NCBI GenBank assembly: GCA_016178125.1
Contig: JACOTV010000106.1
Location: 1 to 24,787, forward strand
Direction of reading: 5' to 3'
Source: Candidatus Microgenomates bacterium
GTDB taxonomy: Bacteria > Patescibacteriota > Microgenomatia > UBA1406 > GWC2-37-13
Length of the DNA stretch: 24,787 nt
Shown here in pieces: positions 5,287-15,266 of this stretch. The notes under the pieces are model-generated. The model was not told the origin of the DNA. It ran no database searches and worked only from the letters and a program-made list of their open reading frames with translations. Numbering within the stretch: the stretch's first letter is position 1; each line of letters begins with the position of its first letter. The position numbers and the translations under genes were made by a program.

Positions 5287-6504
5287 TTATACGTGAACAA
5301 GCTTATATCCACGGGTTCGCACGGTTACTACCTGATACGGAAGTCCTTGTTTTTTTATCTTCTCACGGAGTCGTTCCATAAGTTTGTCTATCGACCAATC
5401 CGAAATGCCGTCTTCTGCTGACTCTGGCCAAACCTTATCAATAATAGCGTCTCGATCACAAATGGCACCGACATGCTCTTGGAGTACAAGAAACAGCGCG
5501 TGTTCTTTTCTCGTAAACTCAAGCGACTGTACTGCGTGCTTTGAGGCCTTATTTTTTTCTTTTATAAAATCTTTAAAGAGTGGAGAAAATATGACGCCGT
5601 TTTGAACCATTCCCGTATTTAGTAAGTAGGCGGGCATTTCTTGTTTTGACTCAGAAACGGCGACGCGCGACAGCTTGTGTTTCTCCTCGTCATTCAGACT
5701 TTCCCACAGCTCCTCGCATAGCAATAATATACGCTCTTCATGTAAAGCAGTTGACTCTAACGCTTCCGGATCCGTTTTGGCTTCGCGCAATATATCCATA
5801 AGTAATCGTAGATAGTGGAAATGTCCCCCTGAAAGCTCAACCAATGCATCGCGTGTTTTTGTATCAAAATGTACTTTGTATTTTGTCTGGTATTGATCAA
5901 TCTGGGTATTTACATTTTCTCGATCCGCGGGCTTTAGGTAGCGCGTGTAGAACAAATCAAACGGCATTTTTCTTCCATAAAAATCAGCGAGCGGTCGATA
6001 GCTAGTAAAGACACATGAGAGTTTATGATCTGAGGCATCATACATTCCATGCACATTATCGATGAATGCTTCACTGATCATATTTATCACGCGATCAAAC
6101 CGATTAAAGAAGATCACCGGTTCAATATTATTTTCGGCAAGTACCCGCAACGCTTCTCGAACACCATCATATGTTAGCTGCAGATTTTGATACTGAATAG
6201 ATGACTCGAATATTGACGTGACCTTAGTGCGTAACTCGCGGTCTGAGACCAAATCACGGACAGCATCTGAGATGCGCTTGAGGGTAAGCTGCCAAAACGG
6301 GAATGCCTCTCGCTCCACGAGATTGTTCAGATCGACAAATATGTACATCTGATTATCAGTCTTTCCATATTGGTGGCTATTAAAAAAATGTCGTAAGAAG
6401 GTGTTTATCCCCACACGACGCATGCCAACGAGCTCTACGCTGTGATTGTGCCTAAGATGTTCTGTTAAAAACGCGCCATCATCGTGGCGATATACGTCGG
6501 TCAT
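5287..6504 (-). CDS. Putative transcriptional regulator: degenerate AAA/STAND-like P-loop domain plus C-terminal OmpR/PhoB-type winged helix
   Basis: N-terminal LVGMRRVGINT (Walker A-like) and VIFFNRFD (Walker B-like); C-terminal FTRKEHALF...RDAIIDKVW...SIDKLMERLREKI...VTVRTRGYKL. Start moved from 6540 to ATG 6504 because TATAAT lies 7 nt upstream. Confidence 0.8.
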   Translation of the reverse strand: MTDVYRHDDGAFLTEHLRHNHSVELVGMRRVGINTFLRHFFNSHQYGKTDNQMYIFVDLNNLVEREAFPFWQLTLKRISDAVRDLVSDRELRTKVTSIFESSIQYQNLQLTYDGVREALRVLAENNIEPVIFFNRFDRVINMISEAFIDNVHGMYDASDHKLSCVFTSYRPLADFYGRKMPFDLFYTRYLKPADRENVNTQIDQYQTKYKVHFDTKTRDALVELSGGHFHYLRLLMDILREAKTDPEALESTALHEERILLLCEELWESLNDEEKHKLSRVAVSESKQEMPAYLLNTGMVQNGVIFSPLFKDFIKEKNKASKHAVQSLEFTRKEHALFLVLQEHVGAICDRDAIIDKVWPESAEDGISDWSIDKLMERLREKIKKQGLPYQVVTVRTRGYKLVHV

Positions 6505-6511
6505 GAAGCAA

Positions 6512-6517
6512 ATTATA
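6512..6517 (-). promoter_or_regulatory. -10 box TATAAT, 7 nt upstream of ATG 6504
   Basis: Plus-strand ATTATA at 6512-6517. Confidence 0.6.
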
Positions 6518-6579
6518 ATCCTGCAAAGCGTGTTACGCAAACAAAATATATCAAAACATCTCGTTCTAGGGGCCGTTGG

Positions 6580-6656: not shown

Positions 6657-8138
6657 ATGCAAACAGAACAGCTGAGGTTCCCCGGTCTAGATCAGGGTCC
6701 AAACCTCAATGTCGCTAAGCTAACTAGATCACACATGACGCCAGCAGAACTAGCATTAGACGCGGCAGCACGCGAGTACATTAGAAATCAAGGTCCCCAC
6801 GTTTCAGCTCCGCTCAGTGGCATTGATTTTCATTCATTGAAAGTCCTTCTTCAAGGATTTGATCGAGGTCAAGGTAATAATCATCTCGACAAATCAACAC
6901 CCACCACTCATCGTATCGGATACAGCGGTGAGTCGTCAGATGTGGCAAAACGAATAGCTGCCGCCACATCATATAACACACCCTTGGGTGAAGGTATCGG
7001 CAACCTTAATCTAGCTCACCCGGAAGCTCAGGGGTACCGAAGTGCAGCTACACTATATTATCAAGATAATCCAACCACGGTCATTGTGCCGATGGCTCGA
7101 GAACCGGTAACTGGAGAAGTAGCAGTCGATTACGCCAGTAGTATGGTCGGTGGAAAACACGTCATAGGAATAACAATAGGCCTCGATGATCAAACAGAAG
7201 AAGAGGCGAAACGTGCTGCCGATCGTAACGGCAGCAGTCATCTAAAGCAATCTGATATTTTAAGGGCAATCAACTGGAAAGCACTGTGCGCAGAGATCGG
7301 CATCCCCCATACTGAAGAAGATCCCCACCTTCCACCTTCAGGAACCAAAGGACTCACTATGCTGTCAGGCGTTCTCGCTGCACGCGTTATTAACGGACAT
7401 GCTCAGAATGGTGTTGCCTTCATAGACTCGGATATTATGAATAATAGCGCGGGCGGATACGATCCATTAGCATACCTCGCGCTACCTGGAGTTGTTAACC
7501 CTGGTAACGATCTCCGTGCCATTAGTGTCGCCAGAACTGGCCCTGGAAGAAATAACGAAATGACCGTAAATTCTCTCAATGAGCTCGCGTACGATACGGA
7601 TCAACTTGACGATGAAAGTCGACAGACTGCCTTTTTGCTGGCTGCCACAAACTCTTGGGCGCTCACCGGTGAACGACTTTTCCCAGCAGTCGACGGACAC
7701 TCTATGTTATTTTCCATGCCATGGACTACCGGCATGAGTATCGAAACACAAATGAATCTGTATCGCGCTGGAATTGAGCTTGCAAAACGCGGTGTACAAT
7801 CTGCACAAGTATTTAACCCTAATCCAAAGGTTGAGCGCGGAATATCGGATCCTGTGCGAGAATTTTCTATGTTAAGCAGATGTGTAGATTGGCAGGTCCA
7901 AGTACTAAGGCATGCATCGCGTGTAGGCAGACAGCTCCCCGATTTCAGCATAGCAGATATAGCTGATTTCAATAAGTCACACGGCGCTGTGGAGCAGACG
8001 AGATATTATGTGAGCGAAAGGCATGCTCCGAATACACCGCGGGTAATTGAGCGCGACTTCATGCTTCCCAGCGTAGATCAAATGATATCAATGGGCGCAG
8101 TTAATGTTGACGCTTTGCAAACCTATGGCACAAGATAA
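6657..8138 (+). CDS. Divergent glucosyl-3-phosphoglycerate synthase-like glycosyltransferase (GT-A fold, GT81-like) with an N-terminal extension of about 135 aa
   Basis: Collinear matches to the GpgS motif series: TVIVPMARE, DDQTEEEA, TKGLTM, VAFIDSDI (D257-S-D259), GRNNE, WALTGE, MPWTTGMSIE, AQV. Confidence 0.65.
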   Translation: MQTEQLRFPGLDQGPNLNVAKLTRSHMTPAELALDAAAREYIRNQGPHVSAPLSGIDFHSLKVLLQGFDRGQGNNHLDKSTPTTHRIGYSGESSDVAKRIAAATSYNTPLGEGIGNLNLAHPEAQGYRSAATLYYQDNPTTVIVPMAREPVTGEVAVDYASSMVGGKHVIGITIGLDDQTEEEAKRAADRNGSSHLKQSDILRAINWKALCAEIGIPHTEEDPHLPPSGTKGLTMLSGVLAARVINGHAQNGVAFIDSDIMNNSAGGYDPLAYLALPGVVNPGNDLRAISVARTGPGRNNEMTVNSLNELAYDTDQLDDESRQTAFLLAATNSWALTGERLFPAVDGHSMLFSMPWTTGMSIETQMNLYRAGIELAKRGVQSAQVFNPNPKVERGISDPVREFSMLSRCVDWQVQVLRHASRVGRQLPDFSIADIADFNKSHGAVEQTRYYVSERHAPNTPRVIERDFMLPSVDQMISMGAVNVDALQTYGTR

Positions 8139-9291
8139 TAATCTCAGAGAGCGAATAAGTACTTACTTCAGGCCGCTGCGTGAGATTGTAAAACAACCGC
8201 CGAACGGAGTTTTAAAATACTCGTATCTTTCCCCGGCGCCACAAAGTGTTTATAAGGAGCTATGGGACTGGGACGCATTTTTCATGGGTGTCAGCTTAAC
8301 TGACCGGAATCCAGATGATGGCATCTTCCTAAAAAATTGGGCGCTTAATTACATAATTAATGCTCAGCCTGATGGAAAAGTTCCCGGCTGTCTCACACCA
8401 GAGGGATACGATCCTCGTTTAAACCATATGAAGCCTTTTCTTGCGCAAGGAATATTGATCGCATCAAAAGCTCTAAATGATTTCACATGGATTAAGAAAA
8501 ACTGGGATGTTATCAAAAAGATTGTCCTCTATCGTGAAAGCACCATGTGGAATAACAAATATGACCTCGCAGTATGGTTCGATAGTATGGAGTCCGGAGC
8601 AGACAATAACGTTGCTGCATACAGAGGTGACTACTTGAATCACGATGCGGGCGACTATCCAAAAAAAAGCATTATTGCTGTTGACGCTAATGCTTACACA
8701 TATCAGGAATATATGTCGATTTCAGAAATTGCTTCAGTAATTGGCATGGCCGAGGATTCCCAATTTTTTGAGAGACGAGCTGAAACAGTCAGATGTAATA
8801 TGCAGGAACATCTATGGAGTGATGTTGACGGAATCTTCTGGAATCTCGACTCTTCAACGGGCCAATTCATTAAGCATGTATCATTTTCATGCTTTGTTCC
8901 CCTTTATGCAAAGCTTGCTACCCAAGAACAGGCGAAGCTTATGATAGAAAACTATCTCCTGTCGAGGGCTCATATGCAATCAAAGTTCGGCTTGCGAACG
9001 TTATCCGCGAGCGACCCGCTGTACAACAATATTAACATGCTCAAACCTCACTCTAACTGGCAAGGGCCAATCTGGCCCATCGCAAATTACATCTATGTAG
9101 TGGGCTTAAAAAACTATGGATACAATAGCGAAGCAAAACGGGTATCTGATGAAATCGCAGCCCTTGTCCTTACCGACCTAGATAAAAATGGGTGCATGCA
9201 TGAGGATTATGATGCCGAAACAGGCGAGCCACTCGCGGCCCCGAATTTCATCAGCTGGAATCTCTTAGTCGAAAATATGCTGGGTAATTAA
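8125..9291 (+). CDS. GH63/MGH1-like (alpha/alpha)6 glycoside hydrolase (glucosylglycerate/mannosylglycerate hydrolase- or trehalase-like)
   Basis: YKELWDWDAFF, MESGADN (catalytic Asp region), NWQGPIWPIANY, MHEDYDAETG (catalytic Glu region), FISWN. Start placed at ATG 8125, overlapping the upstream gene by 14 nt. No signal peptide. Confidence 0.82.
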   Translation: MAQDNNLRERISTYFRPLREIVKQPPNGVLKYSYLSPAPQSVYKELWDWDAFFMGVSLTDRNPDDGIFLKNWALNYIINAQPDGKVPGCLTPEGYDPRLNHMKPFLAQGILIASKALNDFTWIKKNWDVIKKIVLYRESTMWNNKYDLAVWFDSMESGADNNVAAYRGDYLNHDAGDYPKKSIIAVDANAYTYQEYMSISEIASVIGMAEDSQFFERRAETVRCNMQEHLWSDVDGIFWNLDSSTGQFIKHVSFSCFVPLYAKLATQEQAKLMIENYLLSRAHMQSKFGLRTLSASDPLYNNINMLKPHSNWQGPIWPIANYIYVVGLKNYGYNSEAKRVSDEIAALVLTDLDKNGCMHEDYDAETGEPLAAPNFISWNLLVENMLGN

Positions 9292-9302
9292 CCGTAAGAA
9301 GG

Positions 9303-9314: not shown

Positions 9315-10025
9315 ATGGTTCCCGAAACGTTTCCCCAGCCTACTGATGTACTCGCTCCCTTTGCGTATGCAGATTTGCTTGTGCAGCATCAGGTGATTGG
9401 CTCAGATCGACGCGATGAGGCGGCTGCTATCATTATGACCACCCCAACGTCGCTTCATTTACGAGAAGGATCGAAACTGTTGGTCGACAAGATACTTCAT
9501 GGCGGAAGCGATGTGATACTCTGGACCCAGGGCGACCCCGAGATGCAGCGCGCAAAGACCTCTACTTCGACACTTCTTGAAATGGGACAAGCAGCGCACG
9601 GAACTATATCGGCACTATGCGAATCCGACAAAATAGAGTCCCTTGGGAAAGTTATCACCAAAGAGTCGCTTGAGGGGAAAAACAGACTCGTGTTTGTCGA
9701 CGATAAGGCCGAACAATTGCTTCGCGCATATCAATCGATTCTTAAGCTAAAAGAAGTCGATCACATACCGATTCCGCACGATATCGAATACGTATGGATG
9801 CGTGTAGACCCCCATACAAGTCATAAGCTTCCTGAAGGATTTGTATCGAAAGAAAAACTCGCGGATTTTATGGATGGTCGACTTGCTGATGTCGCCGATA
9901 TTTCGGGAATTCCAGTATACGCTCAGACCCTCTACTTTCTCGATTTCGATAGAACGCTTTTTGATTTACCAAGGTGGCTTAGGGTCGTGCAGGACAGAAT
10001 CGCTAGCGAGTTGAGCCAGAGGTAA
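9315..10025 (+). CDS. HAD-superfamily phosphatase-like protein with motif I at the C-terminus (probable circular permutation)
   Basis: Motif II ILWT71QGD, motif III K106, motif IV VFVD129D130K, then motif I LYFLD210FD212RTLFD. Confidence 0.7.
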   Translation: MVPETFPQPTDVLAPFAYADLLVQHQVIGSDRRDEAAAIIMTTPTSLHLREGSKLLVDKILHGGSDVILWTQGDPEMQRAKTSTSTLLEMGQAAHGTISALCESDKIESLGKVITKESLEGKNRLVFVDDKAEQLLRAYQSILKLKEVDHIPIPHDIEYVWMRVDPHTSHKLPEGFVSKEKLADFMDGRLADVADISGIPVYAQTLYFLDFDRTLFDLPRWLRVVQDRIASELSQR

Positions 10026-12243
10026 ACGGCTGGCTTCCACGACAGAACGCGCGTTCGGTTCCGCGGACAAAGACCTCGCGTTTATTTCCCCCGCAGGCAA
10101 CTTCTACGATATTTGCAGGTTTCTTATACCACGATTCTTTTGTTGAGTAATTGGTCAGAAGATACGACATCATTTTGTTCCATATGGGCGCGGCTCCCGT
10201 AATACCCGAGGTAAGTGCTTGATTCATGGGAGTATTATCATTGTTGCCTACCCAGACAACTACCAAATAGTCGGGGGTGTACCCTATGGTCCAGTTATCT
10301 TTCTTGCTGTCGGTAGTACCGGTCTTAACAGCTACTTTGTATCCGGGTATTTCAAGCGCTGAACGGGGTCCAAATGCGGCAATACGGGCGATATTATCGG
10401 ACATAATATCCGAAAGTATGTATGCCGATTCTTCGCTCATCACCCGGCGCGGTTCCTTAGATCGCTCATATAATACTTTGCCATCAGTCTGAGTTATTTT
10501 AAGAAACGGCGTAACTGGCATCTTAGCCCCGAGATTCGCAAACACGCCGTACGCAGTTCCCATATCGACCATGGTAACTTCTCCGCCGCCTAGGGCAAGC
10601 GAGAGACCGTATCTGCTACTGTCACCCCAGGTACTAATACCGAGTGTCTTTGCAAAGCCAATAAAATCAGACAAGCCGATCGATTGGAGTGTTTTAACCG
10701 CTGGAATGTTATATGAATTCGCAAGCGCCATACGAAGTGTTACACGCCCATGAAATCGCTCGTCATAATTAACTGGTCTGTACGGCTCTGCTCCCGGCTG
10801 GGAAAAGTTTGTCGGCGAATCGTCGATCTGGGTCATGCTGGTCATGCCATGCTCTATCGCCATCGAATACACCAAAGGTTTTATCGAGCTTCCCGGCTGT
10901 CTGGTTGCGGTTGTTACATTGAATGCACCATAGGGAGATTCGTAATAATTTTTTGAGCCAACCATCGCTAAAATCTCACCAGTCGATGGTTTCGTAACCA
11001 ATATTGCCCCATTTGAAACGTTTAAATTGCGAATCTTTGCGATTTCTTCAGAAAGTATTTCTTCGGCTTTCTTCTGGATCGTGCTGTCAAGAGAGGTATA
11101 CACATTCAGTCCTCCCTCTTCAACGTCTCGGATGCCAAACTCTTTTTCGAGCTCTCCCTTGGTATAAAACACAAAATGCGGTGCGTCGATATTAGACGAA
11201 GGTTGAGCAATGGTCACTTCCTTAGATTGTGCTGCAGCATAATCCTGAGCATCTATGTATCCCTGTTCATACATTCGTAAGAGCACGTCGTTGCGGCGTG
11301 ATTTGGCAAGATTCGGATTTACAAATGGTGAGTATGCCGATGGAGCTTGGGGAAGGCCGGCCAGGAGCGCGGCTTCGGCGATCGTAAGTTCGCGCGCATG
11401 TTTGCCGTAAAACGTCTGTGCTGCTTCCTCGATACCATAGGCCGATCCACCATACGGTACTTGGTTAAGATACATTTCAAGTACCTGTCGCTTTGTATAC
11501 AATCGTTCCGTCCACAATGCCAGCAACATTTCTCGTGCTTTTCTCAGAAGAGTACGCTCTGGCGAAAGAAGCGAACTCTTAACCAGCTGTTGAGTAATCG
11601 TCGATCCTCCTTGAATCCCTTTAAAGTTACGATTTACCACTGCCTCCTTTATCGCGCGACCAATACCACCTATAAACGACACACCTTTGTGCTTAAAAAA
11701 ATCCTTGTCTTCAATTGCAATCGAGGCTTCGTATATATAGGGGGGCATGTCGTTAAGACGCACCGGCGTTCTGTTCTCATCGCGATATATTTCAAACAGT
11801 TGCTTTCCTGCACGGTCATATATATGGGTCGACAGGGCATAATTTACTTTTCCTATATTTGTTGGTGAGGGTAGGCTCTTGACGAGCAAATATGACTGAT
11901 AGGAAACGAACACAATGAATGAAGTTATAAAGCCTATAACAAAATATTTCAGTTTGAAGAACATACCGAGGATCGCACGCTTTTTACGCCGCTTGGGCAA
12001 CGGTGAAAAAGTAGCCTTTTGATGCTTTTTGATACTGTTTCGTTTATGTTTATTGTTCAATAATGACGAAATAGGACTATATATCAGTCTAAATATCGAC
12101 AATATTGCATGTGCTACCCTCTTAACGAGATTTGCTCCGGTACCCACGAACCAAATGATTTTTTTTACGATAAATCTGAGAGCATCACCTATGAAGATCA
12201 AAACATTAATTGCAAAGTAGAGTATATAGTAAATGATTTTCAT
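10003..12243 (-). CDS. Class A penicillin-binding protein (PBP1A-type transglycosylase/transpeptidase)
   Basis: GT51 motifs IAIEDKDF, QGGSTITQQLVK, RKAREM, LEMYLN; transpeptidase SxxK (SSIK), SxN (SYN), KTGT; N-terminal membrane anchor. Confidence 0.95.
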   Translation of the reverse strand: MKIIYYILYFAINVLIFIGDALRFIVKKIIWFVGTGANLVKRVAHAILSIFRLIYSPISSLLNNKHKRNSIKKHQKATFSPLPKRRKKRAILGMFFKLKYFVIGFITSFIVFVSYQSYLLVKSLPSPTNIGKVNYALSTHIYDRAGKQLFEIYRDENRTPVRLNDMPPYIYEASIAIEDKDFFKHKGVSFIGGIGRAIKEAVVNRNFKGIQGGSTITQQLVKSSLLSPERTLLRKAREMLLALWTERLYTKRQVLEMYLNQVPYGGSAYGIEEAAQTFYGKHARELTIAEAALLAGLPQAPSAYSPFVNPNLAKSRRNDVLLRMYEQGYIDAQDYAAAQSKEVTIAQPSSNIDAPHFVFYTKGELEKEFGIRDVEEGGLNVYTSLDSTIQKKAEEILSEEIAKIRNLNVSNGAILVTKPSTGEILAMVGSKNYYESPYGAFNVTTATRQPGSSIKPLVYSMAIEHGMTSMTQIDDSPTNFSQPGAEPYRPVNYDERFHGRVTLRMALANSYNIPAVKTLQSIGLSDFIGFAKTLGISTWGDSSRYGLSLALGGGEVTMVDMGTAYGVFANLGAKMPVTPFLKITQTDGKVLYERSKEPRRVMSEESAYILSDIMSDNIARIAAFGPRSALEIPGYKVAVKTGTTDSKKDNWTIGYTPDYLVVVWVGNNDNTPMNQALTSGITGAAPIWNKMMSYLLTNYSTKESWYKKPANIVEVACGGNKREVFVRGTERAFCRGSQPFTSGSTR

Positions 12244-12325: not shown

Positions 12326-13123
12326 CTATAATGACGGAAGAGCGGTAAGGCGGGCCTTGACGACAAGCCGATTCCAATATGTCCCCGGTGGAACGCAGGT
12401 AATAAGAGTTACGTTAGCAGAGTCGTAACTTTGGTCAAGAACCGAAATCTGGTCTGGCTTAACTACGAACATATCATAGATTTCGTACTGATAAGATACA
12501 TCGGCGGCTTTTATGGCGATACGATCTCCTTTGTTGAGTGACGGCAAGTAGGTAAAGATTGTCTTGTAGTCTTTCACGTTATAAAGCTGTGGAAGCGTGG
12601 AATGGCCGAAAATAACCACATTCCCATTTTCGCCCGGCATGGTGACCGGCAGATAATGTATTAAACTCTCGGCAAGATTCTCGCCGCCCACCGTAACATG
12701 AGCATCCTTGATGTTTAACTTCGGTATGGAGAGATAATAATCCTTAAGCCATGGCTTTTTCTGGGGCTTTACATCGGCGATATCTTGCTCTGGCACCGTA
12801 GAATGCATTGTCTTACTGTCAGGAGCTGCAACCGACTTTGCTGTTGGGAACCACATACTTGCTTGCGTAAAGTCGCGAACATTATTAGAATACGTCAGTT
12901 TGTTTACGCTCACATTATTTGAGAGTTCGCTCGCTTTGGCAACGGGTATGGGACTTCGCAAGCCGTTCTGAAAAAAAACGCGTGAATACAGCTCAAACGA
13001 TATAACGGGATAAAATGCCCAGAACAGTAAAAAGGCACCAGCGGTAAGCGATAAATAGGATACGGCCGTCGCGACTTTTTTTTCCTTGATTCGCGTTTCC
13101 TTTCGGTATGTTTTTAATGCCAT
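12326..13123 (-). CDS. Sortase (class D/E-like)
   Basis: N-terminal TM helix; catalytic His (IFGHS), Cys (TLITC) and Arg (NRLVVKA). Confidence 0.92.
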   Translation of the reverse strand: MALKTYRKETRIKEKKVATAVSYLSLTAGAFLLFWAFYPVISFELYSRVFFQNGLRSPIPVAKASELSNNVSVNKLTYSNNVRDFTQASMWFPTAKSVAAPDSKTMHSTVPEQDIADVKPQKKPWLKDYYLSIPKLNIKDAHVTVGGENLAESLIHYLPVTMPGENGNVVIFGHSTLPQLYNVKDYKTIFTYLPSLNKGDRIAIKAADVSYQYEIYDMFVVKPDQISVLDQSYDSANVTLITCVPPGTYWNRLVVKARLTALPSL

Positions 13124-13136
13124 ATGATATAGATAC

Positions 13137-15266
13137 TTATTGATACTCCACTTCGACAGTAACGTTTTTCTTCATGATCGGCGTATACATATTCAGCACC
13201 GGAAGATTGGGTGTGGTAACCACACGGATACCCGTTGCATGAAACCCGTCTTTTACTATCTTATCAAGTGCGGAGACTGCTTTACCACTCATCCGCGAGA
13301 CAAGCTGCGACCTGTCAAAAACCGGCACGGCTTTTGAGGTTACTTTGAAGGTAACAGCACGCGCCTCGGGGTCGTCCTTTTTATCAATTCTCACAATGCG
13401 GTATGCAACCGTTTCTGCCTGTACCCGCGTTCCGCCGGCAAGTCCATGACTTAATTCCTTGGTGAATGCTGCTTTTAACGCATTTTCGTCGTATGTGTAA
13501 TAAGTAGTCTTAGCATCTGCGGTCAGTGAGATCGATTCAGCTTCGTCACCCGCCTTTTTTGAGAGTTTCTCACCGTCTAAGCTCACATCGGTCAAGTCTT
13601 CGACGATCACCTTGCCTGAACCGATTTTCGCCCTCAAATTAGCGGCAGTTTCCTTCTTAGCTTGTTCCATTACACTCGCTCGTAGTTTATTTATGTCGGT
13701 TGTCGATGCAACGCGAATCTGCTTCTTTGAACCCCCGCTAAATGCATTTTCTGTCTTTGCGATTACCGTACTTGAAGATTCACCCTGAATGTTCAGTTTT
13801 GTCCCCGATCCGATGTTGTATTCGGTCCCGATGTCGCCTGCTATGGCGGTTACCTTCGCAGTACTTGAACGGATGTCTGAGGCGTCCCCCGAGGCCGACG
13901 CAACTTTCACATCAGTCTCGAGAACAAACGAAAGATTGTTTGGACCTGTCAATTTCGTGCCTTTTGCGAGTGTTTGGCTTTCTGAAAGGCTACTATTGTA
14001 TATGGTCACTGTGCCTTTTGCCTTCTCCCCAACCTGCTTTTGGCCGGTTGTTTGCGCAGTCCCATCTACCTTACGTAAATCGGTTCCTTCATCGAGTTTA
14101 AGATCGCTTCCTATCGTGACGTCTTTATCGATTTGTTTCGCCGGGAAGGTTACTTGTACTTGAGCTTTGTGCAGAAAGTATTCAGTCGCGCCAAGCCCCA
14201 CTAGGACGAGCGCAACAACCACGACGGCAACTATCGGCAACATATGCCCGATAGACGGTACGGATATTTTTGGCATACGAATCTTAGGAACCACTCCCTT
14301 GGCCTTTTTGGCAGGAGTCGGGGGGGAGGCTTGCGCCGTAGTTTGTTGATCATCGTCGTCGCCGATCATAAAGCCCATAACCTGATTGGGGGTTTCCCGT
14401 ATATTACTTTCCTCGGGAACGATCGATGAAACTTCTGAGAAGGTAAATCCTTCCTCCATTGTTTCAAGGACCTCAGAAGGTGCCGCTGTCGCCGTTACAC
14501 TTGGCGTGGCTACCTGCATTTCATCTGTGTGGTGAATTTGCCGAGCAAACACATCGACCAAACTTTTGTGCAGATCTTCTTGGGTGAGTATGTCGATCTT
14601 GGGGGCTGTCGGAAATATCTCTTCGCTCCACCTGTTGGAAAGCAAGGTCGACACGTCGTTTGTGAGCGACTTTTCGTCATACATGATCAACCTGTTCGGG
14701 AGAACATAGTGTTGTTTCAGCGACTGAAACACAGGAGTCAACGTATCTATCACGTTTCCACTTCGGGCTAAGGTCTCTTGGTGAATATTATTGCCGCCTT
14801 GATAAAGGGTTATGGTTACGACGGTTCGGTCAAATTCCAACAGAATCATGTGAAGCGGAGCATGTTCACGAGCTTTAAAATGCTCAATAATTGCTTCCTG
14901 GCACTCTATATATCCAAGCGGTTTGAGGTCGAGACTCTTAGCAAGTTCTTTGATTTTTGAAAGAAACGGTCGCTTGATTTCGCGGTGCTGCGGATCGACA
15001 AAATGAGAATATATGAAAAAGATCGCCTGCTGCGGAGCAAGATGTGTTTTGGTTTCTAGTCGATAGAGGACTTCGTCTATATCGTCGACCAATTGCTCCC
15101 AACCGTTACTGTAGTTGAAGTACTCGGTACCGAGTATCTTAAGCCCTGCATGACCGTCTTCTAGGTACATAACGACACCATCTTGTTCCTTAAAGAAGAT
15201 CCCAATAAAAACGTCGTGCTTTTCTTCGGGCTTATTTTTTTTCTTTAAAAACGGAAGAGATATCAT
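13137..15266 (-). CDS. Single-pass membrane protein: degenerate FtsA/PilM-like actin-fold N-terminus, low-complexity linker, TM helix, C-terminal baseplate-J-like domain
   Basis: TM segment LPIVAVVVVALVLVGLG; C-terminal pattern KAKGTVTIYN...KGTKL...SFVL...TAIAGDIGTEYNI...FSGGS typical of baseplate J/gp47-like domains. The N-terminal assignment is tentative. Confidence 0.6.
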   Translation of the reverse strand: MISLPFLKKKNKPEEKHDVFIGIFFKEQDGVVMYLEDGHAGLKILGTEYFNYSNGWEQLVDDIDEVLYRLETKTHLAPQQAIFFIYSHFVDPQHREIKRPFLSKIKELAKSLDLKPLGYIECQEAIIEHFKAREHAPLHMILLEFDRTVVTITLYQGGNNIHQETLARSGNVIDTLTPVFQSLKQHYVLPNRLIMYDEKSLTNDVSTLLSNRWSEEIFPTAPKIDILTQEDLHKSLVDVFARQIHHTDEMQVATPSVTATAAPSEVLETMEEGFTFSEVSSIVPEESNIRETPNQVMGFMIGDDDDQQTTAQASPPTPAKKAKGVVPKIRMPKISVPSIGHMLPIVAVVVVALVLVGLGATEYFLHKAQVQVTFPAKQIDKDVTIGSDLKLDEGTDLRKVDGTAQTTGQKQVGEKAKGTVTIYNSSLSESQTLAKGTKLTGPNNLSFVLETDVKVASASGDASDIRSSTAKVTAIAGDIGTEYNIGSGTKLNIQGESSSTVIAKTENAFSGGSKKQIRVASTTDINKLRASVMEQAKKETAANLRAKIGSGKVIVEDLTDVSLDGEKLSKKAGDEAESISLTADAKTTYYTYDENALKAAFTKELSHGLAGGTRVQAETVAYRIVRIDKKDDPEARAVTFKVTSKAVPVFDRSQLVSRMSGKAVSALDKIVKDGFHATGIRVVTTPNLPVLNMYTPIMKKNVTVEVEYQ

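Follow-up and report, generated by a model that had tools for sequence, protein, structure and literature searches.

HAD enzymes form one of the largest phosphatase superfamilies and are recognized almost wholly through the fixed order of four motifs. The best profile and structure matches to the protein described here are 2p11 (BXE_B1342, Burkholderia xenovorans), 2pke (Xanthomonas campestris) and 3ddh (Bacteroides thetaiotaomicron), three uncharacterized C1-capped HADs from structural genomics. Like our protein, they carry the signature (T/S)-x-G-(D/N)-x3-Q-x2-K...SGL after strand S2, a D-K motif III region, an hh(V/I)DD(K/R) motif IV, and a motif I of the form (F/L)D(F/C)D(N/R/H)TL(F/L)D that leads into a cap helix. 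Unlike it, they follow the canonical order of motif I, cap, II, III and IV, whereas here the first ~40 residues of the fold, comprising strand S1 and cap helix 1, lie at the C-terminus. Because none of the three has a known substrate, no function can be transferred from them.

The gene analyzed here lies in a 24,787-nucleotide stretch of DNA (the window). We propose, with a probability of roughly 80%, that it encodes a single-domain, circularly permuted HAD enzyme, likely an ordinary phosphotransferase. That it is catalytic and depends on Mg2+, and that it acts on a phosphorylated sugar or glycoside, we infer. In the proposed arrangement, a short linker would connect the old C-terminus (after S5/S6) to strand S1. 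The new termini would split the C1 cap, so that its helix 1 becomes the last helix of the chain (218-233) and its helices 2-4 form the N-terminus. In three dimensions the chain would re-form the standard HAD active site, with D210 and D212 of motif I placed beside T71 (II), K106 (III) and D129/D130 (IV). An aspartyl-phosphate would form on D210 and then be attacked by water.

Gene boundaries and motif order

The source genome comprises 963 kb in 133 contigs and is 78% complete. In the 236-residue protein, the HAD motifs run II (T71), III (K106), IV (D129-D130) and I (D210-x-D212-x-T214), and direct reading places the motif I codons at 9942-9944 (gat), 9948-9950 (gat) and 9954-9956 (acg). The preceding gene stops at 9291, leaving a gap of 23 nt before the HAD ATG, and an in-frame TAA at 9285-9287 leaves just nine open codons ahead of it. 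A DxD motif therefore cannot lie further upstream in an extended N-terminus. At the 3′ end, the HAD gene and a convergently oriented PBP1a gene (10003..12243) overlap by their ends. The coordinates of the gene, its motifs and its upstream neighbors are collected in Table 1.

Table 1. Window coordinates of the permuted HAD gene, its motifs and structural elements, and the two genes upstream
Feature	Coordinates	Strand	Evidence
Upstream gene 1, 493-aa GT-A glycosyltransferase, glucosyl-/mannosyl-3-phosphoglycerate synthase-like	6657..8138	+	ESM Atlas features 0.96; structure TM 0.52-0.57 to GpgS/MpgS clusters
Upstream gene 2, MGH1-like glycoside hydrolase (GH63/trehalase-like)	8104..9291	+	Pfam PF22422 at 1.9e-36; weak NCBIfam match to glucosylglycerate hydrolase
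Putative ribosome-binding site AAGAAGG	9296..9302	+	12 nt ahead of ATG; inferred from direct reading only
Circularly permuted HAD-fold protein CDS (P0001)	9315..10025	+	236 aa; ORF list, translation, homologues, AF2 model (pLDDT 94)
Residues 15-62, cap helices 2-4 and core helix into strand S2; new N-terminus inside C1-type cap	9357..9500	+	DSSP H15-24, H30-42, H53-62; aligns with 2p11 cap; 36-43 contact C-terminal helix
Motif II, W70-T71-Q72-G73-D74, end of strand S2, then subfamily signature Q78...K81	9522..9557	+	W70, T71, G73, Q78 and K81 invariant
Motif III lysine, K106	9630..9632	+	Invariant; in predicted interface with motif-I fragment
Motif IV, V126-F-V-D129-D130-K131, end of strand S4	9690..9707	+	Aligns with 'vmvDDK' of 2p11; 124-128 pair with 205-210 (predicted)
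Strand S5, residues 156-162, 'EYVWMR'	9780..9800	+	DSSP of model; conserved VW(I/M)(N/R) block
Strand S1 with motif I, T205-L-Y-F-L-D210-F-D212-R-T214, nucleophile and acid/base Asp, moved to C-terminal end	9927..9956	+	D210, D212 and T214 invariant; aligns with 2p11 8-40 and P0031 4-25
C-terminal amphipathic helix, residues 218-233, equivalent of first C1-cap helix	9966..10013	+	DSSP; contacts 36, 39, 40 and 43; matches post-motif-I helix of 2p11 and P0031

Conservation was assessed in a family alignment of 29 sequences (A2). All 29 share the same linear order, with WTxG at ~75, (V/I/L)DD(K/R) at ~135 and DxDxT at ~220, and a second DxDxT, sought in each of them, was found in none. At identities to the query of 19-58%, eleven residues are invariant throughout the alignment: W70, T71, G73, Q78, K81, K106, D129, D130, D210, D212 and T214. 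They comprise the HAD catalytic residues and the subfamily signature. In motif IV, K131 is retained in at least 90% of the sequences. The pattern T-x-G-D/N-x3-Q-x2-K is common to our protein, 2p11, 2pke, 3ddh, NANP and two canonical-order relatives described below (P0030 and P0031).

The original prediction had described a HAD protein with its motifs in the order II, III, IV, I, with neither a DxD at the N-terminus nor room for one upstream, and with all catalytic residues retained. Each of these points holds: the residue numbers it gave are correct, the intergenic gap and the stop codon close off the upstream side, and the catalytic positions (T71, K106, D129, D130, D210, D212 and T214) do not vary across the family. 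With a full DxDxT, an Asp at +2, and the Thr, Lys and DD motifs all in place, phosphoryl transfer would proceed through an aspartyl-phosphate on D210, and the Asp at position +2 of motif I speaks for a phosphatase or mutase and against a dehalogenase. The protein is probably an active phosphatase or phosphotransferase.

Swapped homology to canonical HADs and the predicted fold

When searched against the PDB, the 29-sequence profile matched 2p11 with a full-sequence E of 3.5e-5, in two pieces whose order is swapped. Profile positions 215-247 fell on residues 8-40 of 2p11 (lFDCDNTLLD, motif I and the first cap helix), and positions 18-154 fell on residues 57-179 (cap, motif II with GDxxxQxxK, and motif IV, vmvDDK). 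Weaker matches were obtained to 2pke, 3ddh and NANP; an earlier profile built from 5 sequences found nothing in the PDB. The exchange was already visible in sub-threshold HAD matches within individual homologues, in which HAD_2 positions 2-32 aligned to residues 251-281 of P0012 and Hydrolase positions 88-136 to residues 49-99 of P0008.

Metagenomic relatives with the canonical order, P0030 and P0031, surfaced in a profile search of a large protein collection. P0031 starts MKIFLDFDRTLFDLDAF, a segment almost identical to residues 206-220 of our protein, and BLASTP aligned the two proteins in swapped order, with residues 208-229 on 4-25 (55% identity, E 7e-5) and 66-132 on 104-160. In hhalign comparisons, the cap-to-motif-IV part of the family alignment matched P0030 at 97.2% (E 3.8e-11) and P0031 at 97.0% (E 9e-11). 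Additional canonical-order relatives were found as ORFs in same-class genomes (L042, L045, L046 and L048), with DxDxT at 11-46 and hhhDD at 162-191. In P0030, P0031 and these ORFs, unlike the permuted family, motif I is N-terminal, within residues 4-46. A family core HMM gave canonical-order relatives 21-40 bits and generic HAD_2 proteins no more than 1.3 bits. The canonical-order relatives look like a sister or ancestral form of the permuted family.

If the protein is a permuted HAD, placing its C-terminal segment in front of the rest should improve its match to HAD profiles, and the original prediction had suggested this comparison. As a reference we used a home-made profile of 22 canonical HAD_2 proteins from related genomes. 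All 29 members scored higher with the HMM once their last ~35 residues had been placed first. In native order, hhalign paired the family with the canonical HAD_2 profile at 71% (E 3.7e-5) over 90 columns; with motif I placed first, by any cut at 150-205, the values rose to 96.3% (E 1.6e-9) over 162-166 columns. Cuts at 215 or 225, which lie past motif I, brought them back to the native level. The permuted alignment matches motif I, the cap, motif II and motif IV to their canonical counterparts.

A first AF2 model, built from 5 sequences, reached a pLDDT of 69, was not trustworthy and was replaced by one built from the 29 sequences (pLDDT 94, pTM 0.90). DSSP assigned to the latter helices at 15-24, 30-42 and 53-62, a strand at 66-72, further helices, strands at 98-103 and 124-129, a helix at 132-147, a strand at 156-162, a helix at 179-185, strands at 190-193 and 205-210, and a helix at 218-233. 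VIA-align was run exhaustively against 48,161 chains, and HADs made up almost the whole of the top 50. The best was 2p11 (Z 11.6, rmsd 4.0 A, 172 residues aligned), followed by 2pke (Z 9.9) and 3ddh (Z 9.8). The alignments pair residues 1-203 of the model with HAD chains from residue ~20-50 to the end, so that the S1 strand and first cap helix of the HADs are left unmatched, as are residues 204-236 of the model. Neighbors in the ESM Atlas were all HAD families, with a structure match to 'Haloacid dehalogenase' at TM 0.57. With either model, the Foldseek matches in the PDB were generic Rossmann-like noise with no HAD among them, and a Foldseek search of the AFDB clusters gave just two unnamed full-length look-alikes. 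We attribute the missing HADs to the limits of sequential alignment on a permuted chain and do not count them against the assignment.

The position of the relocated strand was examined by predicting residues 1-203 and 204-236 as separate chains. The docking score was 0.91, compared with 0.44 for the best control; 58 of 80 solved complexes attain that mark, as do 2 of 110 mismatched pairs. Contacts agreed to at least 95% across three runs, and the partner pLDDT was 88. The lowest-error contacts join 205-210 to the T71 strand (65-69) on one side and to the D129 strand (124-128) on the other, and the strand is therefore predicted to be central, as S1 is in every HAD. The predicted interface takes in T71, K81, K106, D129 and D130, and the cap bundle is completed by the packing of helix 221-229 against 36-43. 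As regards the squiggle and flap that directly follow S1 in HADs, DSSP marks isolated bridge residues at 212, 216 and 49 of the model, and the separate chains make contacts at 53:215 and between 48-50 and the C-terminal fragment. In the split-chain prediction, the contacts of 48-50 and 53 would fit a flap closed from both ends of the chain.

The separability of the motif-I segment raises the question of whether it acts in cis. In a domain-swapped arrangement, the C-terminal S1 strand and helix would enter the core of a second subunit, so that only an intertwined dimer could be active. Many HADs oligomerize, the segment docks confidently as a chain of its own, and the loop that tethers it is only ~11 residues long (194-204). 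Nonetheless, the monomer is predicted with confidence throughout, with pLDDT values of 94-98 for residues 200-230 and a pTM of 0.90, so closure in cis is sterically possible, and in the kinase fusions described below the motif-I segment is internal to the chain. We consider the swapped dimer improbable.

The permuted HAD remains our reading, and it can be set against the features by which HADs are defined. The model has a Rossmannoid three-layer alpha/beta core that VIA-align superimposes on solved HADs, and motif I is predicted to sit at the C-terminal end of a central S1 flanked by S4 and S2. Motifs II, III and IV align with those of 2p11 and of canonical HAD_2 proteins, and HMMER and hhalign recover the C1-capped subfamily signature of 2p11, 2pke and 3ddh, (T/S)xG(D/N)xxxQxxK...SGL with hh(V/I)DD(K/R). 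The linear order I, cap, II, III, IV is absent from all 29 members; the difference is one of how the chain is connected and does not touch fold or active site. Curated HMMs from Pfam and NCBIfam gave no match to the protein even at E 10, and a PF13419 scan of the source genome did not pick up the gene. Every testable structural and catalytic hallmark of the superfamily is present, the exceptions being motif order and recognition by curated HMMs.

These results also speak to the structural expectations of the original prediction, that the C-terminal DFD strand would insert at the center of a HAD core, and that the new termini lie inside the cap with the last helix corresponding to the start of the C1 cap, and to the two comparisons it proposed, a re-joined chain against HAD profiles and a look for homologues with the same order. 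The confident model, its 1-203 match to HAD chains and the placement of 205-210 between the T71 and D129 strands agree with the first. The packing of helix 221-229 and the alignments to 2p11 and P0031 support the second, and the gain on re-joining and the 29 same-order sequences, with canonical-order relatives aligning swapped, are the outcomes of the two comparisons that favor it.

Distribution, kinase fusions and alternative readings

A word-indexed search returned 4 close homologues at 47-59% identity, and an exhaustive HMMER search of 1.84 billion representatives returned 26 homologous proteins. The family is rare: among 301 same-class genomes, full matches in the permuted order were found in 3, the source genome included, and a distant permuted copy in 1 more; the remaining profile matches were canonical-order relatives. 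A permuted copy is present in each of the two same-genus genomes that were searched. The gene of genome G002 seemed to be truncated, a possibility we rejected when the apparent break proved to be a masked (N) stretch. A related-locus search with alignment A3 found one fusion member in a Candidatus Curtissbacteria MAG, which places the family in the CPR/Patescibacteria; the same search with alignment A1 found no relative.

About half of the representatives are 584-630 residues long and consist of the HAD domain followed, right behind the post-motif-I helix, by an APH/choline-kinase-like domain. The fused kinase domain had no match among PDB sequences. The 493-residue protein encoded upstream of our gene was considered as a counterpart of this kinase and rejected, as the two are not similar. 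In a shared-core tree, the standalone proteins P0001-P0006 form a clade with support of 100/100 that adjoins a fusion clade; the tree did not separate a single from a multiple origin of the permuted forms.

The fusions suggest a second alternative, in which the protein is a permuted HAD whose chemistry is not simple hydrolysis. It could act as a phosphomutase, moving phosphate between sugar positions, or as a phosphotransferase or regulatory module that works with the APH-like kinase. Both the frequency of the fusion and the repeated occurrence of a beta-phosphoglucomutase-family HAD as a neighbor favor this view, and there is a precedent in ACAD10, in which the HAD domain restrains the kinase domain (PMC11342911) and which our protein could resemble in this respect. 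Against it, a search of the source genome (78% complete) for a fusion-type kinase found none, and the standalone clade stands well apart and keeps the full DxD signature, whereas the ACAD10 HAD is without a complete DxD motif (PMC11342911). We regard non-hydrolytic chemistry as an outside chance for the standalone protein, and retain an ordinary phosphatase-type HAD as the preferred reading.

The remaining alternative is that the gene is decayed or artefactual, a catalytically dead, N-truncated HAD joined by tandem duplication or misassembly to the stump of a second copy. By the textbook path, a permutation arises when a tandem duplication is truncated twice, and an intermediate of this kind must once have existed, but the present gene can be dismissed as such a remnant: its boundaries and catalytic residues are kept in 29 proteins from independent assemblies down to ~20% identity, it recurs in both same-genus genomes, the model is a confident single domain, the supposed stump is predicted to occupy the central strand position, and misassembly or a decayed duplicate is excluded since the family sequences come from many independent assemblies. 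The view taken in the original prediction, of functional permutation rather than decay, is supported accordingly, and the misassembly or truncated second copy that it named as a refutation is rejected on the conservation across assemblies.

No description of a natural circularly permuted HAD was found in the full-text literature searched, the coverage of which is incomplete, so that this is absence of evidence only, and such a family seems not to have been described before. A bolder interpretation is that these proteins are the first natural circularly permuted HAD lineage, cut in the specificity cap, and that motion of the cap is mechanically coupled to the fused kinase. In the ~600-residue members, cap helix 1 and the nucleophile strand would sit directly against the APH-like kinase. 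We think this combination unlikely; if true, it would mean that CPR bacteria possess a built-in kinase/phosphatase (or kinase/mutase) sugar switch, of which the standalone protein is the freed phosphatase half.

The permuted family bears on several wider matters. It indicates that the HAD fold can be rewired at the cap, a property of use to protein engineers and in studies of folding, and the canonical and permuted sister families offer a concrete pair in which to study the origin of a permutation. Annotation that depends on motif order (Pfam, NCBIfam, Foldseek) is blind to permuted HADs, which for that reason remain "hypothetical" in CPR genomes. The family is also a candidate for an unassigned phosphatase step in sparse CPR sugar metabolism. 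Its chemistry is known, and no new chemistry is revealed; the chain topology is unusual, and the kinase-HAD fusion defines a new architecture.

Gene neighborhood and comparison with known systems

The two genes immediately upstream encode a glycosyltransferase (GT) and a glycoside hydrolase (GH). No Pfam model matches the 493-residue GT, which gave sub-threshold collinear profile matches to M. tuberculosis GpgS. The GH gene overlaps the GT gene by 35 nt, and the three genes, tightly packed with the HAD gene last, probably form one operon; a scan for promoters and terminators found sites no more often than expected by chance. The GT-GH-HAD order recurs in one other assembly (L050), where the HAD is 59% identical to ours.

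The HAD gene is a resident of a locus between a Trans_reg_C regulator and PBP1a. Other instances of this locus have it alone or preceded by different genes, either a GH1 or a kinase gene together with a beta-phosphoglucomutase-family HAD. Close homologues occur elsewhere without the GT, and the GT-GH pair occurs elsewhere without the HAD; the functional link between GT and HAD is weak. Among recurring neighbors, GH1 was found beside two different subclades and a beta-phosphoglucomutase-family HAD beside two others, and MIP channels were also found. The theme common to these neighborhoods is sugar or glycoside phosphate metabolism. A sugar substrate is supported by the adjacent GT and GH, by the GH1, beta-phosphoglucomutase-family HAD and MIP neighbors, and by the kinase fusions. 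At this locus, the best single guess is the glycosyl-3-phosphoglycerate that the upstream GpgS/MpgS-like GT might produce. It is a doubtful one, and the GT could itself be a one-step synthase with no need of a phosphatase.

If that guess were correct, MpgP and GpgP would be the functional analogues, a likeness that comes from gene context only, namely a GpgS/MpgS-like GT together with a glycosylglycerate-hydrolase-like GH. Known MpgP enzymes are Cof-type HADs with a C2B cap, and mycobacterial GpgP is a histidine phosphatase. Homology of our protein to either was sought and not found: no NCBIfam or Pfam model matched, the cap is of C1 type, and its best relatives resemble subfamily IA. The sugar phosphatases of that subfamily, among them NANP/HDHD4 (2w4m, 4knw), are C1-capped, Mg-dependent HADs that act on sugar phosphates and carry T-N-G-D-x3-Q-x2-K. 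NANP gave weak profile matches in swapped order and a VIA-align Z of 8.1. It differs from our protein in being distant (E ~1), in having the canonical order and in its biological context. Finally, the ~600-residue members resemble ACAD10-type proteins in domain layout, with a HAD placed N-terminal to a small-molecule kinase of the APH fold; the ACAD10 HAD, unlike the permuted family, keeps its motifs in the canonical order.

Flanking genes of the permuted HAD locus

The features discussed here are collected in the table below. Divergently upstream of the locus lies a gene for a 416-aa protein that ends in a DNA-binding Trans_reg_C domain, a winged helix of OmpR/PhoB type; within the first ~320 residues, neither a receiver nor any other domain was recognised. 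This gene is kept in the same divergent position in several relatives (L035, L036 and L050). Downstream of PBP1a are a sortase gene and a gene for a 709-aa protein, for which a weak match to the GlxA beta-barrel was the only one obtained. The block of PBP1a, sortase and large uncharacterised protein is syntenic across all close relatives examined (L033, L034, L035 and L050).

Table. Coordinates of features at the permuted HAD locus and at related loci.
Feature	Location	Strand
C-terminal Trans_reg_C protein	window 5287-6540	-
GT-like protein, 493 aa (ESM Atlas features and structure, sub-threshold profile matches)	window 6657-8138	+
MGH1-like (GH63/trehalase-like) glycoside hydrolase	window 8104-9291	+
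Sortase and 709-aa protein	window 12326-15266	-
Permuted HAD + kinase-like fusion	L036 2432-4213	
Permuted HAD + kinase-like fusion	L039 6965-8746	
Canonical-order relative	L042 1357-2526	
Canonical-order relative	L043 859-2028	
GH1-like, permuted HAD and MIP genes	L054 573-3229	one strand

Kinase fusions and other relatives

In P0007-P0021 and other proteins of ~590-630 aa, the permuted HAD domain is fused to a C-terminal APH/choline-kinase-like domain carrying HxDxxxxN and DxEW motifs. In L036 and L034 a gene for a HAD of the beta-phosphoglucomutase family comes after the fusion gene, and in L036 it precedes MIP, enolase, iPGM and 2-hydroxyacid dehydrogenase genes. At L054, in the same-genus genome G002, a P0025-like permuted HAD gene lies between an upstream GH1 beta-glucosidase-like gene and a downstream MIP channel gene; part of this HAD gene reads N, a stretch of masked bases that mimics truncation. 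The canonical-order relative with motif I at residue 11 (L042 and L043) has an additional C-terminal domain of ~190 aa.

The probable GT-GH cassette upstream

The 493-aa protein gave no Pfam, NCBIfam or PDB sequence match. By its ESM Atlas features and structure and its sub-threshold profile matches, it looks like a GT-A glycosyltransferase of the glucosyl-/mannosyl-3-phosphoglycerate-synthase type that carries a long N-terminal extension. Its gene overlaps the GH gene by 35 nt, and an MGH1-like hydrolase gene comes next after nearly all of the 11 homologues found. The GT-GH pair moves as a cassette, and in other assemblies (L051, L052) it is also found beside CBS, CitMHS-transporter and hexokinase-like genes. 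Together with its homologues, the 493-aa protein appears to constitute an unannotated GT family.
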